Under the pieces are notes generated by a model. It worked only from the letters and a program-made list of their open reading frames with translations, did no database searches and was not told the DNA's origin. Positions 37,508 through 42,651 of a DNA stretch of 64,000 nt are shown piece after piece. The DNA comes from Pseudomonadota bacterium (GTDB lineage Bacteria; Pseudomonadota; Gammaproteobacteria; JAKAQQ01). Location: assembly GCA_027365475.1 (NCBI GenBank), contig DAHXNI010000024.1, positions 93,362 to 157,361 of the forward strand, read 5' to 3'. The stretch's first letter is position 1; the number at the start of each line of letters is the position of its first letter. Made by a program: the position numbers and the translations under genes.

Positions 37508-37633
37508 TCCTAAAAGATGATTTCAAGGGCAGCCAATATCATCGGTTTTTACCTTTCCAGGGTAACGGGTTACCTCCTTCCCCACATTTGTGCCACCGTT
37601 AGATACTGAGGCCAGTCGAAGCGGGTGACGGAA

Positions 37634-38083
37634 TCAGCGGATCTGGCTCAGAAACCGATCGAACGCCTGAAGAGTCACACTTGAGACATAGTGCTCGATG
37701 CCTTCTGCATCGGCCTCGGCCGTTTCGATTGGCACTCCCAGCGCCTCCAGTACTTGAACGACAAGCCGGTGGCGCGCACGGACCCGGTCGGCTAGGGCTT
37801 GGCCGGCTTCGGTGAGGAAAACCCCTCGGTAAGGCTTTGCCACTGCAAGCCCTTCCCGTTTGAGTCGATTGATGTTTTTGGTTGCCGTTGGGTGCGAAAC
37901 ACCGAGCCTACGGGCAATATCGATCGGTCGCGCCTCTCCGTTGACTGCCAAGAGATCAGCAATGAGCTCAACATAATCCTCACGCAGAGCGGCCGACTGG
38001 GCGATGCGGGTTTTACTAAAGCGCCGTGCCTGAATAGGCGCAGTGGGTAGTGACCCCAATAACGACTTTGATACACCTGTCAC
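37634..38083 (-). CDS. mntR: manganese-responsive transcriptional regulator (DtxR/MntR family)
   Basis: Strong alignment to E. coli MntR (DYVELIADLL...GEARPIDIARRLGVSHPT, WRGVFLTEAG, RHRLV, DAEGIEHYVS). Confidence 0.85.
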   Translation of the reverse strand: MTGVSKSLLGSLPTAPIQARRFSKTRIAQSAALREDYVELIADLLAVNGEARPIDIARRLGVSHPTATKNINRLKREGLAVAKPYRGVFLTEAGQALADRVRARHRLVVQVLEALGVPIETAEADAEGIEHYVSSVTLQAFDRFLSQIR

Positions 38084-38216
38084 CGTGTGCTACCCCGGTC
38101 AAACATGCTAGATCCGCCGCAAGCATACGCTTCTTCCACCGTCTCCGCTACAGGTCAAGGCACCTTGCGTCCCGACCCGGGGTTCCCGGACACAACCTCC
38201 GCGCCAGTCGTAGGGC

Positions 38217-38258
38217 TTGACATTATGAAGCCAAGGCTTTATATAATAGCCATGGCTA
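38217..38258 (+). promoter_or_regulatory. strong sigma70 promoter (TTGACA-17-TATATA/TATAAT) with an overlapping 12-bp palindrome TAGCCATGGCTA (putative MntR box)
   Basis: TTGACA at 38217-38222 and TATATAAT at 38240-38247. The perfect palindrome at 38247-38258 sits within aATAGCcatgGCTAc, which resembles the E. coli MntR site ATAGC-N4-GCTAT. It lies about 225 nt upstream of the Nramp ATG, in the mntR/mntH divergent region. Confidence 0.45.
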
Positions 38259-38481
38259 CAAACTCGTTCGAACCCATTTTCAAAGATGCTGGACTAGAGC
38301 AGAACGCCAATTATTTTGCTGCACGCCGGACACGGACTTGGCCACGTCGGATTCTTTCTCCGTCGCTTCAGTTTCTTTTATGGTCTCTGCGTGTATATGT
38401 TTTTGTGATGCTGAACGTGGTTGCAATTGAAGTGATGCGGGCGCTGGTCGCTTAAATATGGCTTCACCGGAACGCTAACTC

Positions 38482-39801
38482 GTGCCAGCGCACGAGGACT
38501 ATGATCGTGCCCGAGACCGACGGGCAATCGAGCGGACTCGGATACAGGTAACAGGTTGGCGAGGCGCCCGACTGTTATTTCTGTTAATCGGACCTGGTAT
38601 TCTGACGTTTCTCGGCGAAAACGATGCGCCGAGTATGCTTTCTTACGCGGCGACGGGTGCGCAATTCGGCATTGGCTTTTTTTTACCGTTTGTGGTGTCC
38701 ACTTTCGCGATTGCCTTCGTCATTCAGGAAATGGCTGCAAGAATCGGCACAGCAACAGGCCAAGGTCATGCAAGGCTGATTTTTGCGCGTTTTGGACGGT
38801 TTTGGGGCCATTTTGCGATGACGGACCTTTTCATTGGCAATTTTCTAACCCTTGTTACAGAGTTTATCGGCATTCGTGCTGGGCTTGGATTTTTTGGAGT
38901 TCCACCAGTCGTTGCTGTTGGCGGCAGCATCCTTGTCATCGGCTTGGCGATCTCGACCTCGCGTTATCACACCTGGGAACGGATCACGATGGTGCTCGCA
39001 CTCGGTAATGCGATTTTTCTTCCGGTTGCGTTTCTGGCGCATCCCGATTTTCATGCAATCGGACAAGCCTTACTGAGCTGGAGTCCGCTGCCAGGCGGAT
39101 TTCGTCCCGATGCATTCACCCTCATGATTGCGGATATCGGCGCAACGGTAACTCCCTGGATGTTGTTTTTTCAACAGGGCACTGTGGCTGACAAGGGATT
39201 GACCCCGCGTGAGTTGGCCGGTGCACGATTTGATACGGCGATGGGCGCCGCTCTGGCAGCGATTTTCGGTGTTGCGGCCATCGTGGCCACAGCACCGCTT
39301 TTGTCGCACCGCGTGAGCGCCCCAGCCTTCCAGGCAGCCCAGTTCGCTCAGGCACTCGAACCCTTGATTGGGCATCTTGGAGCCTCATTATTTGCCATTG
39401 GTATTTTTGAGGCTGGACTGGTCGCGGTGATTACCATATCAACCACTTCAGCCTATGCCTTTCATGAGATTCTTGGCGCACCTCACAGCCTGAACACTTC
39501 TCTGAGAGATGGGTGGCGCTTCTATGCTGTTTTACTCGGCTCAGCTGTCATTGCCGGCGGATTCACATTGGTTCCTGGAATGCCGCTTGAGGATATTGTG
39601 ATCCTCGTCAACGTGGTCGCAACACTGGCCATGCCACCGGCACTGCTTTTTCTTCTCGTGCTCGCTAACGATCACGAAATAATGGGTGCCTATCAGAACG
39701 GTTTACTGGCAAATATTGCCGGAATCGGGGTGACTGTGTTTCTCATCGCGTGCGGCCTCGGGTTTACAACAGTCGTCTTATTTCCGCATCTGTTGGGTTG
39801 A
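38482..39801 (+). CDS. mntH: Nramp-family divalent metal transporter with non-canonical metal-site residues
   Basis: 439 aa with about 11 TM segments that align with E. coli MntH. The TM1 motif is DAPS instead of DPGN, and TM6 is GATVTPW instead of GATIMPH. It is divergent from mntR. Confidence 0.8.
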   Translation: MPAHEDYDRARDRRAIERTRIQVTGWRGARLLFLLIGPGILTFLGENDAPSMLSYAATGAQFGIGFFLPFVVSTFAIAFVIQEMAARIGTATGQGHARLIFARFGRFWGHFAMTDLFIGNFLTLVTEFIGIRAGLGFFGVPPVVAVGGSILVIGLAISTSRYHTWERITMVLALGNAIFLPVAFLAHPDFHAIGQALLSWSPLPGGFRPDAFTLMIADIGATVTPWMLFFQQGTVADKGLTPRELAGARFDTAMGAALAAIFGVAAIVATAPLLSHRVSAPAFQAAQFAQALEPLIGHLGASLFAIGIFEAGLVAVITISTTSAYAFHEILGAPHSLNTSLRDGWRFYAVLLGSAVIAGGFTLVPGMPLEDIVILVNVVATLAMPPALLFLLVLANDHEIMGAYQNGLLANIAGIGVTVFLIACGLGFTTVVLFPHLLG

Positions 39802-40098: not shown

Positions 40099-40470
40099 AT
40101 GTCACTTCTTTTTTCGAAAAGTCGAGTAGCTCCTATAATCCGTGTAAATCAACAAGAAAGCAGCGCCCTCCATCTCCGTGGAGCCTTGGAATCTGTTTTT
40201 TTGTCGGATATAGTTATACTTGATTACAACACCAAACCCGCAGAAACCGAGAATCGCAGAGGGTGGGCTTCATGGAAATCATTATTACCAGCCGGACTTC
40301 TTCTGGGTACGCTCGTTGCCGTTTATTCTGGGGTTTCGGGCATTTTCGGAGCCCCCGACACGGTCTCGATCCATTTCATGGCCTGGGCACTGGCTGTCAC
40401 CGTCATTGCATCACTCCTCGTGAGCGGTGGGTTCCTCGCATTTGCAGCTCGCGAGCTCAGTATCCCCTGA
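40099..40470 (+). CDS. small membrane protein (123 aa, two C-terminal TM helices), first gene of the YtrA/ABC module
   Basis: GAGGT lies 7 nt upstream. The N-terminal 60 aa are soluble; two hydrophobic helices follow (LLPAGLLLGTLVAVYSGVSGIF, MAWALAVTVIASLLVSGGFLAF). GC content is lower than the surrounding DNA. Confidence 0.4.
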   Translation: MSLLFSKSRVAPIIRVNQQESSALHLRGALESVFLSDIVILDYNTKPAETENRRGWASWKSLLPAGLLLGTLVAVYSGVSGIFGAPDTVSIHFMAWALAVTVIASLLVSGGFLAFAARELSIP

Positions 40471-40517: not shown

Positions 40518-40895
40518 ATGGCACAGCACACAACCTGGGATGACCGCGAACCAATATACCGGCAGTTGCGTGATCGTCTGGCCGCCATGATCCTCGACCA
40601 AAATGTGAAAGAAGGTGATGCGTTACCCTCGGTCCGGAGTATGGCAGCTGATTTCCAGCTGAACCCCCTGACCGTGCTCAAATCCTATCAGGGTCTCGTG
40701 GATGAAGGTGTGATCGAGAAACACCGGGGACTGGGCATGTATCTGGCACCGGGGGGGCGGGAGCGATTGCTCGAACGAGAACGCCGACGGTTTCTCGATC
40801 GCGACTGGCCAACCATCATCCAGACCATTGAACGTCTCGGGCTCGACCCCAAGGCGCTTGTCGACGCTCTTACCACCCAAACGCGGCCGGAGTAA
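40518..40895 (+). CDS. GntR-family transcriptional regulator, YtrA-like mini subfamily
   Basis: 125 aa with an N-terminal winged HTH (PIYRQLRDRLAAMILDQNVKEGDALPSVRSMAADFQLNPLTVLKSYQGLVDEGVIEKHRGLGMYL) and only about 50 aa C-terminal to it, which is the YtrA hallmark. Confidence 0.8.
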   Translation: MAQHTTWDDREPIYRQLRDRLAAMILDQNVKEGDALPSVRSMAADFQLNPLTVLKSYQGLVDEGVIEKHRGLGMYLAPGGRERLLERERRRFLDRDWPTIIQTIERLGLDPKALVDALTTQTRPE

Positions 40896-40900
40896 CTGAT

Positions 40901-41758
40901 ATGCCTGTACTTGTCGAAACAGATGCTTTGACCAAACGATACAAAAACCAGGTGGTTCTTGAAAATGTATCCATCGCGATTGAGGAAGGTTCGATTGTTG
41001 GTCTGCTCGGCCCCAATGGGGCCGGGAAATCAACCTTAATCCAGTGCATCCTGGGACTTCTTGCCTACGAAGGTCAATGCAGGACACTCGGACGGGATCC
41101 GAGACGTTCCCGTCACTTGCTCATGGAAAACACGACCTATGTGCCCGATCAGCTCTGCCTTCCGCTTTGGTTGAGTGTCGAACAGCTCCTTCAGTTCATG
41201 TGCAGCATCCATCCTCGCTTCTCGGAAAGCGAAGCGCGACGCTTCCTCAATCAAACAGAAATCAAGGGCTCATCAAAACTCTACAAACTGTCAAAGGGAA
41301 TGCTGGTTCAACTGCATCTGGCGCTGGCGCTGGCTACAGACAGCCAACTGCTGATCCTGGATGAACCCACACTCGGCCTAGATGTAACTCGGCGCAAGGA
41401 GTTCTGGAAACAAATCATCAACGACTATAGCGATGGGAAACGAACGTTGATCATCGCGACCCACTTGATTCAGGAAGTCGAGCATTTGGTCAGTCACTTG
41501 ATCCTGATAAACCATGGACGAATCACGCTCAACCAATCCATGGATTCTGTTCTGGAGCACTACCAAAGCGTTTTGGCTTTCCCTGGCCGCGCTCAGGATC
41601 TACGCGCCATGAATCCAGTCAAGGAACAGGAGGTATTCGGTCGGACCGTCTTTCTCTTCGAGGGCCGCTCGCCACGGGAACTCGCACAATATGGAGAAAT
41701 CCACCAGACCCATCTGACCGATATATTTGAAGCTGCCACTCAGAGGGACCCTTCATGA
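40901..41758 (+). CDS. ABC transporter ATP-binding protein
   Basis: Walker A GPNGAGKST, signature LSKGMLVQL and Walker B LLILDEPTLGLD. A C-terminal extension of about 80 aa is typical of ABC-2 partner ATPases. Confidence 0.85.
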   Translation: MPVLVETDALTKRYKNQVVLENVSIAIEEGSIVGLLGPNGAGKSTLIQCILGLLAYEGQCRTLGRDPRRSRHLLMENTTYVPDQLCLPLWLSVEQLLQFMCSIHPRFSESEARRFLNQTEIKGSSKLYKLSKGMLVQLHLALALATDSQLLILDEPTLGLDVTRRKEFWKQIINDYSDGKRTLIIATHLIQEVEHLVSHLILINHGRITLNQSMDSVLEHYQSVLAFPGRAQDLRAMNPVKEQEVFGRTVFLFEGRSPRELAQYGEIHQTHLTDIFEAATQRDPS

Positions 41759-42651
41759 ATGTCACCCGATTCGCTGCATTGGTCCGGCGTGAGCTTTGGG
41801 AGCGCCACTGGTTTATTCGACCCTGGCTCATCCTGTCGTGTCTGCTCGTCTTTTTCGGTTTGGTCGGGTTAACTTTGGTGGCGCTCTTCTCAACGACATT
41901 CGAAATCCGGGTGCAAGACTCCGTGACGCATCCGAGTGGAGCCATCCTCTTTCTGGGGCTGGGTACGATTTTCGGTCTGATCCTTCTGCTCCGCATCGCA
42001 AGCTATTTTGCGCATACCCTCCACGATGAACGGATGGATCGAAGCTATGTTTTCTGGAAATCCATTCCGGTTTCAGACACAGCAACGGTGGGCAGCAAGG
42101 TTTTTACGGGTCTTTTCGTCATACCTGTTGTGACCTGGGTCTGCCTCATTGCAACGAGCCTCATCCTGCTTTTCTTTCTCAGTCTGGCCACCAGTTTACT
42201 CGGACACAACTTCTGGGGAAGCTTCTGGGCGCCCGGTTCATTGATATCGACCAGTCTCTACCTGGCGGCTGTGTTTCTCACGCTGCCGCTTTGGTTCTTC
42301 CCGCTTTTGGCATGGTTCTTGCTCTGCTCGGCATGGAGCAGCCCGCGCATCAGAAAAAGCCCCCTTTTCATGGCCCTCGTGATTCCAGCGGCTCTGCTCT
42401 TGCTGGAACCTCTTCTCCTCGGGACTGATCTTTTTGCCTCCTGGCTCGCCAAGCTCTTCACTCCGATCAAACTGATCCTGATGCACACCTACAATCCCCC
42501 CCACTGGAGCTATGGACTCACCATGCCGGTTAGTTGGCTGGATTGGGCCCGTCTCTTCACTCAGCCCGAACTGTGGTGGGGTGGGCTGATTGGCCTCATC
42601 TTCACAGCTCTGGCCGTTTACCTCAGGCACCGCACTGAATCACATCGCTAA
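41755..42651 (+). CDS. ABC-2 type permease (6 TM)
   Basis: Start overlaps the ATPase stop (ATGA). About 6 hydrophobic helices, no soluble domains, 298 aa. Confidence 0.7.
   Translation: MNVTRFAALVRRELWERHWFIRPWLILSCLLVFFGLVGLTLVALFSTTFEIRVQDSVTHPSGAILFLGLGTIFGLILLLRIASYFAHTLHDERMDRSYVFWKSIPVSDTATVGSKVFTGLFVIPVVTWVCLIATSLILLFFLSLATSLLGHNFWGSFWAPGSLISTSLYLAAVFLTLPLWFFPLLAWFLLCSAWSSPRIRKSPLFMALVIPAALLLLEPLLLGTDLFASWLAKLFTPIKLILMHTYNPPHWSYGLTMPVSWLDWARLFTQPELWWGGLIGLIFTALAVYLRHRTESHR

Follow-up and report, generated by a model that had tools for sequence, protein, structure and literature searches.

Three site signatures have been published for SLC11 transporters (PMC8806188): DxxN with A/CxxM in the NRAMP proteins, DxxN with AxxT in the NRATs, and DxxG with TxxA/T in the NRMTs. 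The classic NrmT genes were originally defined by their linkage to the M-box Mg2+ riboswitch (PMC4072509), and EleNRMT, a protein of 11 helices, showed no H+ coupling in proteoliposomes (PMC8806188). In Bacillus subtilis, the Nramp-related Mn2+ importer YcsG/MntG is repressed by MntR (PMC10448178). The specificity of most Nramp-related proteins is unknown (PMC13060092), and according to a 2026 preprint the Nramp-related groups other than the NRMT-like and MntG groups are entirely uncharacterized (PMC12873925). Here we describe a locus on contig DAHXNI010000024.1 of a Pseudomonadota bacterium (assembly GCA_027365475.1), within a 64,000-nucleotide stretch that was analyzed as a whole and is called the window below, in which a gene for an SLC11 transporter follows a gene for a small membrane protein next to a divergent mntR gene. 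The transporter belongs to an uncharacterized and widespread NRMT-like subclade with a new site signature, predicted MntR control and a previously undescribed small partner. With a probability of roughly 0.6, we read it as an MntR-repressed, proton-uncoupled Mn2+ importer with the small protein as its accessory subunit.

The features on which this reading draws are as follows, in coordinates of the window:

37634-38083, minus strand: mntR, the divergent gene for a Mn2+-sensing repressor of the DtxR family, assigned by NCBIfam equivalog, Pfam and PDB matches.

38217-38245, plus strand: putative sigma-70 promoter of the operon of small open reading frame (ORF) and transporter gene, with -35 hexamer TTGACA (38217-38222), 17-bp spacer and -10 hexamer TATATA (38240-38245).

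38228-38239, strandless: predicted MntR operator 1, AAGCCAAGGCTT, within the -35/-10 spacer.

38247-38258, strandless: predicted MntR operator 2, TAGCCATGGCTA, a perfect palindrome that covers both the expected start of transcription and the small ORF's ATG.

38252-38455, plus strand: first cistron, for a small single-pass membrane protein of 67 amino acids with an LLWxLRxYV motif and an invariant Arg47.

38482-39801, plus strand: gene for the NRMT-like SLC11 transporter, 439 amino acids, GTG start, signature DxxS-AxxT-N.

38617-38634, plus strand: codons E46-N-D48-A-P-S51, the unwound metal-site segment of transmembrane helix 1 (TM1), whose canonical counterpart is YxDPGN.

39142-39159, plus strand: codons A221-T-V-T224-P-W226, the unwound metal-site segment of TM6, whose canonical counterpart is AxxMPH.

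39610-39612, plus strand: codon N377 in TM10, in place of the metal-contacting Gln (DraNramp Q378, EleNRMT Q379).

The transporter matches the Pfam Nramp family (PF01566; E 8e-59, 199.8 bits against a cutoff of 29.8) over profile positions 3-356 of 357, and with the NCBIfam MntH model NF001923 it scores 74.3 bits, below the cutoff of 430. By sequence, its best solved relative is EleNRMT (7qia, E 7e-49), with the canonical Nramps at about 1e-9. In an AlphaFold model (predicted local distance difference test 87.3, predicted template modeling score 0.88) the protein is predicted to have a LeuT-type fold with unwound TM1 and TM6, and the helix breaks at residues 47-48 and 223-224 coincide with the motif segments of these two helices. 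The best fold matches to the model are again EleNRMT (7qia and 7qji, TM-score 0.85 normalized to the target), and all of the top 29 PDB fold matches are SLC11 proteins. The end-to-end alignment with the 11-TM EleNRMT points to 11 TM helices here as well.

An earlier note on this gene had proposed that both hallmark motifs of the metal site are replaced, DPGN by DAPS and AxxMPH by ATVTPW, and LGENDAPSML and GATVTPW are indeed found exactly in the ORF. The TM1/TM6 register assumed there was confirmed by a MAFFT alignment of the transporter with E. coli MntH (NC_000913), DraNramp and EleNRMT, in which the transporter has neither the canonical D-P-G-N nor the Met. In TM1, D34-P-G-N37 of E. coli MntH aligns with D55-A-G-G58 of EleNRMT and with D48-A-P-S51 of the transporter, Ser51 standing for the Asn; in TM6, G-A-T-I-M-P-H of MntH aligns with G-T224-T-I-A227-P-W229 of EleNRMT and G-A221-T-V-T224-P-W226 of the transporter, with Thr224 for the Met and Trp226 for the His. 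The position of DraNramp Y54 is taken by Glu46. The substitutions that the note ascribes to Nramp-related Mg2+ transporters at the Asn and Met positions agree with the published NRMT signature, DxxG-TxxA/T (PMC8806188). Of that signature and the alpha-10 Gln that accompanies it, the transporter has only the Asp and the last Thr, with Asn377 instead of the Gln. As read from the alignment, DxxS-AxxT-N fits none of the published NRAMP, NRAT and NRMT signatures.

These residues are invariant across the transporter's family and thus constitute a family signature, as opposed to a one-off change. Of the 120 best homologues, all contain GATVTPWM and 118 contain GENDAPS, and E46, N47, D48, A49, P50, S51, A221-W226 and N377 do not vary in a 32-sequence family alignment (62-78% identity). 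An acidic residue at the E46 position is also frequent among NRMT-like proteins, 58 of 80 having Asp there.

When 1.84 billion representatives were searched exhaustively, 220 relatives were found at E<=1e-30, and the site columns were read in 84 full-length representatives. These reveal a mixed NRMT-like radiation, comprising DxxG-TxxA, DxxG-NxxA, DxxA-TxxA and Met-keeping DxxS-AxxM proteins together with the D[A/G]PS-ATVTPW-N type to which the transporter belongs. Bootstrapping recovered its group as monophyletic in 100/100 trees and placed it at the base of the other NRMT-like proteins in 0/100, and no sister group was firmly assigned (44/100); all trees were built by neighbor joining. Placement in the SLC11 tree, a check named in the note, thus makes the transporter a member of what is, by sequence, a monophyletic subclade nested in the NRMT-like radiation and not a modified canonical MntH. 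Elsewhere in the radiation, P0144, P0147, P0168, P0177, P0181, P0185, P0198, P0203, P0212 and P0249 read DxxS-AxxM-P-W, and Glu or Met replaces their TM10 Gln; their NRMT-like scaffold, which has no TM6b His, still carries the 'soft' Met, and these proteins form a single clade in just 4/100 bootstraps.

The proton-path residues are lost in the same pattern as in EleNRMT. Residues E124, D131, H232, H237, R352 and R353 of DraNramp align with F117, L124, W226, Q231, N338 and T339 of the transporter, and E127 (DraNramp E134) is the only residue retained among the proton-path positions compared. This loss, membership among the NRMT-like proteins, the N377 and E46 replacements and the small membrane-protein gene all go beyond what the note had described. 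The resemblance to EleNRMT and CabNRMT (NrmT; 7QIA; PMC8806188, PMC4072509) includes the retained TM1 Asp and TM3 Glu and the Trp in place of the TM6b His, and with EleNRMT the transporter further shares non-titratable residues at the proton path, alignment from end to end over 11 TM helices, and the same NRMT-like radiation. Unlike these proteins, which have DxxG-TxxA/T and a Gln, the transporter has DxxS-AxxT and a TM10 Asn, and the Thr that is essential for Mg2+ transport by EleNRMT is an Ala. It also lies behind MntR operators instead of an M-box riboswitch, and it is strictly linked to a small membrane protein, a partner of which the NRMT papers (PMC8806188, PMC4072509) make no mention.

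With canonical MntH/Nramp proteins (E. coli MntH, DraNramp, ScaDMT) the transporter shares the PF01566 domain, the LeuT fold with unwound TM1 and TM6 and the conserved Asp, as well as an MntR-box arrangement next to a divergently transcribed mntR that some proteobacteria also show, and like them it probably takes up Mn2+. Unlike them, it has no DPGN, no Met and neither of the TM6b His residues, it is without the proton-path charges of TM3 and TM9, and it is about 20% identical to them. YcsG/MntG, as a non-canonical, Nramp-related and MntR-linked protein, provides a functional precedent but belongs to a different Nramp-related group: its structure (9a52) ranks 19th among the fold matches at 18% identity, and a phmmer search with the transporter did not detect it at E<0.01. 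The genomic contexts differ as well, that of YcsG being a 5-oxoprolinase (pxpABC) operon and that of the transporter being mntR and the small protein, with no pxp genes nearby. The alpha-6 AxxT, in which a Thr replaces the Met as a hard ligand, is shared with the plant NRATs (SiNRAT, OsNrat1; PMC10115441), and SiNRAT transports Mn2+ in an uncoupled manner (PMC10115441). NRATs are, in contrast, a branch of the canonical eukaryotic Nramps with DPSN and an extra alpha-3 Asp (SiNRAT D140), where the transporter has DAPS and Thr123, and the AxxT common to both is convergent.

The divergent neighbor, which the note had taken for a bona fide MntR, scores 196.7 bits with the NCBIfam equivalog NF008273 (cutoff 153), contains the Pfam domains Fe_dep_repress and Fe_dep_repr_C, and has E. 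coli MntR as its best solved structure (2h09, E 1.4e-30). It is identical to B. subtilis MntR at the residues aligned to D8, E11, H77, E99, E102 and H103, which we take to be the Mn2+ ligands, and on these matches it qualifies as a bona fide E. coli-type MntR. The pattern WAGCCNNGGCTW has two sites in the 64 kb, where 0.23 would be expected by chance, and both are the boxes at 38228-38239 and 38247-38258. By the operator consensus used for comparison (PMC1698941), AAGCCAAGGCTT and TAGCCATGGCTA both fit the E. coli-type MntR operator AACATAGCnnnnGCTATGTT and overlap the promoter; they have their core, TAGC-N4-GCTA, in common with the E. coli mntH operator AACATAGCAAAGGCTATGTT. The placement of one box in the -35/-10 spacer and of the other over the start site is a repression geometry, and we infer that MntR represses the operon. 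The note had put the transporter gene behind a putative MntR box; the box is real and conserved, but the gene is not directly behind it, as the 67-residue ORF (38252-38455) lies between. A consensus promoter scanner gave no call for TTGACA-17-TATATA, which it missed because the -10 hexamer ends in A, so the promoter rests on a reading of the sequence and on conservation.

Conservation of this arrangement was assessed in 80 related loci with fetched flanks. TTGAC followed 7-8 nt later by the same palindrome core (e.g. ATGTAGCCAAGGCTACAT) is present in 15/15 alphaproteobacterial loci, with a second, downstream box also in L018, L042 and L060. The arrangement is kept in L002, L004, L018, L042, L060, L068 and L071, where no mntR was detected in the fetched flank. 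A DtxR-family gene lies directly upstream, divergent or co-directional, in about 30 of the 80 loci, which belong to Planctomycetota, Verrucomicrobiota, Spirochaetota, Bacillota, Chloroflexota and Acidobacteriaceae. For each of the six such regulators scanned, which come from five phyla, a Mn-type MntR model outscored the iron DtxR model; one, from a Verrucomicrobial locus, was above the cutoff for B. subtilis-type MntR. No M-box or other riboswitch matched at the gathering score in 11 diverse loci. In the roughly 400 bp upstream of the transporter in the window, no Rfam match was found at E<=1 save one tRNA-like match beyond mntR, and the M-box by which NrmT was originally defined is absent.

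Loci of the Acidiferrales type (L007-L070) have an element from about 95 to 5 nt before the transporter ATG, strongly conserved as TTGAC-N10-GTTAAGCGTAGTTTAT-N7-AGTTTAGCTAGGTTAAC-N2-3-ATG. Its blocks look like operators for a regulator that is not encoded nearby, and with the Deinococcus DR2539 operator the element has only a loose TTTAG half-site in common. About 2.5 kb upstream in L007 and its relatives, genes for proteins of about 450 residues (with a hydrophobic N-terminal half), about 110 residues and, on the minus strand, about 105 residues are kept in about 30 Acidiferrales-type loci, which probably reflects lineage synteny rather than a functional link. In the Terriglobales (L087-L092) the operon order is a DtxR-like regulator with an FeoA-like domain, the Nramp-like gene, the small protein and an aconitase, and a ferritin gene is found near the sister-clade locus L083.

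The small protein consists of a basic N-terminal stretch followed by one hydrophobic helix; in its family R47 is invariant and L46, Y49 and V57 are nearly so. Its ATG lies inside operator 2, about 7 nt past the -10 hexamer, and the mRNA of this cistron is therefore probably leaderless. A longer form of the gene, ORF 38087-38455 (122 residues as listed; 116 in the call of the Joint Genome Institute), was rejected because the conserved promoter and operators lie inside it and because protein conservation begins about 20 residues after the ATG at 38252. By tblastn and then a hidden Markov model (HMM), an adjacent co-directional homologue was found in 78 of the 80 related loci, and the two others are contigs cut at that side, which leaves 78 of 78 informative loci in at least seven phyla; neither search found further matches elsewhere within the 80 loci. 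The small gene is upstream of the transporter in Alphaproteobacteria and downstream in all other phyla, and in Terriglobales operons the two genes abut without a gap. It also accompanies the sister DGPS subgroup and one classic DAGG-type NRMT. In a reciprocal look-up from the small-protein cluster, six distinct places all read regulator, Nramp and small gene, the latter two abutting, and 13 further places were similar. The protein has no Pfam or NCBIfam family match, and in a profile search its family comprised 2,147 clusters, every named one of which is called 'hypothetical protein'.

Some relatives carry the corresponding helix within the transporter chain. The NRMT-like proteins P0135, P0141, P0142, P0151 and P0165 (530-562 residues) continue into one more helix and, past a linker, a terminal one, and would have 13 helices. 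When 25 sequences were searched, this terminal helix hit the small-protein HMM at the same HMM positions as the small protein (E 1.4e-7 to 3e-4), and the invariant Arg is aligned. The small protein is accordingly the free-standing counterpart of a helix that is built into the transporter of some relatives, and this homology is taken as evidence that it binds the transporter. In three Verrucomicrobial loci (L052 7530-8135, L072 3324-3929 and L073 7480-8085), an N-terminal universal stress protein (Usp) domain is fused to the small-protein module in a protein of 201 residues, which suggests a cytoplasmic regulatory input to the transporter and, together with the basic stretch, argues for a cytoplasmic N-terminus of the small protein. 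In one Spirochaetota metagenome-assembled genome (CAVUXE010000044.1; L021 5842-7569), transporter and small module are in frame with no extra helix between them. This fusion may be real or may be an assembly or frameshift error, and it was counted as doubtful Rosetta-stone evidence; L066, a relative of L021, has stop codons between the two genes.

Small membrane partners of bacterial ion transporters include KdpF, MgtR/MgtS, MntS and AcrZ. The protein described here resembles them in being single-pass, shorter than 100 residues, encoded beside a transporter and co-regulated with it, but it has no sequence similarity to any of them. In the literature searched, no partner has been described for an SLC11-family protein.

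We propose that the small membrane protein and the transporter are encoded by a two-gene operon that would be repressed by the divergent MntR when Mn2+ is plentiful and expressed when it is scarce. The transporter would import Mn2+ as a proton-uncoupled uniporter, through a site made of hard oxygen ligands only (D48, S51, the backbone carbonyl of A221, T224 and N377, with E46 and E127 close by) and with neither the Met thioether nor the Asn that canonical Nramps have. Within the membrane, the small protein would attach to the transporter as an accessory helix whose N-terminal end faces the cytoplasm. The physiological substrate Mn2+, the absence of proton coupling, and the physical association and role of the small protein are in each case what the comparisons suggest. 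In EleNRMT, the T224A mutation abolished Mg2+ transport and left Mn2+ transport intact (PMC8806188), and the transporter's family has an Ala (A221) at this position. SiNRAT, with its AxxT, transports Mn2+ with a Michaelis constant of about 14 uM and needs the Thr to do so (PMC10115441), and M230T is among the most Mn2+-active variants of DraNramp (PMC13060092). The note had left the choice between a Mn2+ transporter with unusual coordination and an MntR-controlled transporter of different selectivity, and the former is now the better supported because Mn-type regulators are linked to the subclade, no Mg2+ riboswitch was found, the EleNRMT Thr is an Ala, and AxxT supports Mn2+ transport in SiNRAT. 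An exporter was also considered and set aside on account of the operators, which overlap the core promoter in a repression geometry. In MntR-activated Mn exporters, the MntR sites lie upstream of the promoter, and to our knowledge the characterized SLC11 proteins are all importers.

By organism and sample names, the relatives come mostly from acidophiles, peat and mine drainage (Acidiphilium, Acidiferrales, Sulfotelmatobacter, SPRUCE peat, palsa), which would imply a bias toward acidic sites. One study reports proton uniport by an Nramp transporter (PMC6888756), and a transporter with no proton path would avoid such a leak in acidic habitats; loss of the Met may in addition lower the uptake of soft toxic metals. 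A bolder version of the proposal, to which we give only tentative credence, is that this is the first two-component SLC11-type transporter, with the small protein as an obligatory subunit (a detached terminal helix) and a DxxS-AxxT-N site of new selectivity that allows hard-ligand, uncoupled Mn2+ uptake and excludes Mg2+ as well as soft toxic metals, Cd2+ among them.

Several observations weigh against an MntR-repressed Mn2+ importer with a subunit. The promoter hexamers are our own reading and were not called by the scanner; about half of the 80 loci, those of the Acidiferrales type, have no adjacent regulator; and the Mn2+ role of the subclade is drawn from sequence and context. DraNramp with the Met-to-Thr change or with changes at H232 admits Mg2+ (PMC13060092 for M230T), so that site chemistry alone cannot exclude this ion and the regulatory evidence carries the argument, and EleNRMT itself carries both Mg2+ and Mn2+ (PMC8806188). 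These last two points favor a true NRMT that imports mainly Mg2+, or Mg2+ and Mn2+ like EleNRMT, and whose link to MntR is secondary; so does the fact that EleNRMT, which likewise has no Met, a Trp for the TM6b His and no proton path, is the closest characterized relative in sequence and fold. This nonetheless seems quite improbable, as the NRMT signature is broken by three changes, G to S, T to A and Q to N, of which T to A abolishes Mg2+ transport by EleNRMT, and S51 and T224, being bulkier than the Gly and Ala they replace, should narrow the enlarged cavity that is thought to hold hydrated Mg2+. There is also no M-box, Mn-type repressors are linked in many phyla, and the operators are placed for repression. 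Fe2+, or Fe2+ with Mn2+, would be the main substrate if the family served acidic habitats in which Fe2+ is stable, under DtxR/IdeR-like control in most lineages. Canonical Nramps carry both ions, the sources are mostly acidic by name, and the aconitase (L087-L092) and ferritin (L083) neighbors hint at iron, as do the regulators outside the Alphaproteobacteria, which are long, have FeoA-like C-terminal domains and, being below the MntR equivalog cutoffs, could sense Fe2+. The regulator in the window is, by contrast, an E. coli-type MntR above its cutoff with every presumed Mn2+-ligand position of the B. subtilis protein identical, its operator fits the MntR consensus and not that of Fur or IdeR, and the six regulators scanned from five other phyla all favor Mn-type models over the DtxR iron model. 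On general coordination chemistry, an all-oxygen site without Met or His should suit Mn2+ better than Fe2+, and we hold an iron importer to be about as improbable as a Mg2+ importer.

By analogy with the plant NRATs, the substrate could instead be a hard trivalent or other non-transition cation such as Al3+, which would fit acidic, Al-rich habitats, the alpha-6 AxxT that is the NRAT signature, and the additional acidic E46 two positions before D48. We consider this very improbable because the NRAT-specific residues for Al3+ in SiNRAT are absent, the Ser of DPSN corresponding to Pro50 and Asp140 (DraNramp T130) to Thr123. SiNRAT (8ont) is moreover only 26th among the fold matches, an acidic residue at the E46 position is common in NRMT-like proteins, and Al3+ import would have no evident benefit for a bacterium and would sit poorly with control by MntR. 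The role of the small ORF is a separate matter. It may be no subunit at all but have a function of its own, or act as a leader peptide or regulator of expression, beside a transporter that works alone, as EleNRMT does in liposomes (PMC8806188), and the small protein may be dispensable for transport. The one in-frame fusion (L021) is doubtful, being topologically awkward without an extra helix, and the link to a subunit is deduced from sequence comparison. Against a non-subunit, which we think rather unlikely, stand the linkage in every informative locus across at least seven phyla, which survives a change of gene order, the abutting genes of the Terriglobales, conservation of the protein sequence with its invariant Arg and not just of the DNA, and the homology to the terminal helix of longer single-chain relatives. 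A leader peptide, for its part, would have no place downstream of the transporter.

The window forms part of Joint Genome Institute metagenome 3300024473, contig Ga0257086_100013. Between folE and mntR (37508-37591, minus strand), Rfam gives a tRNA match of 26.9 bits, short of the gathering score of 29; as ARAGORN found no tRNA there, the match is probably a remnant or due to chance. Downstream of the transporter, on the plus strand, are a 123-residue ORF without a Pfam match, probably for a membrane protein (40099-40470), and genes for a GntR-family regulator, an ABC ATPase and a 298-residue hydrophobic product (40518-42651), which together look like a separate small transport operon.

How SLC11 proteins separate Mn2+ and Fe2+ from Mg2+ and Ca2+ is an active question, and the site types characterized are the canonical, NRMT and NRAT ones. 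The subclade described here is a natural experiment in this respect, as it retains an NRMT scaffold in which four site positions have changed in concert (G to S, T to A, A to T and Q to N), and since its regulators point to Mn2+ independently of the site residues, the roles of the four positions are open to back-mutation. The small protein, if it is a subunit, would be new for SLC11 and could matter for the expression and study of other NRMT-like proteins. The selectivity of the bolder version, if true, would suit acidic, metal-rich habitats in which the proton leak of canonical Nramps is costly. The transporter family is abundant in bacteria of peat, acidic soil and mine drainage, and it probably accounts for a substantial share of Mn acquisition there.

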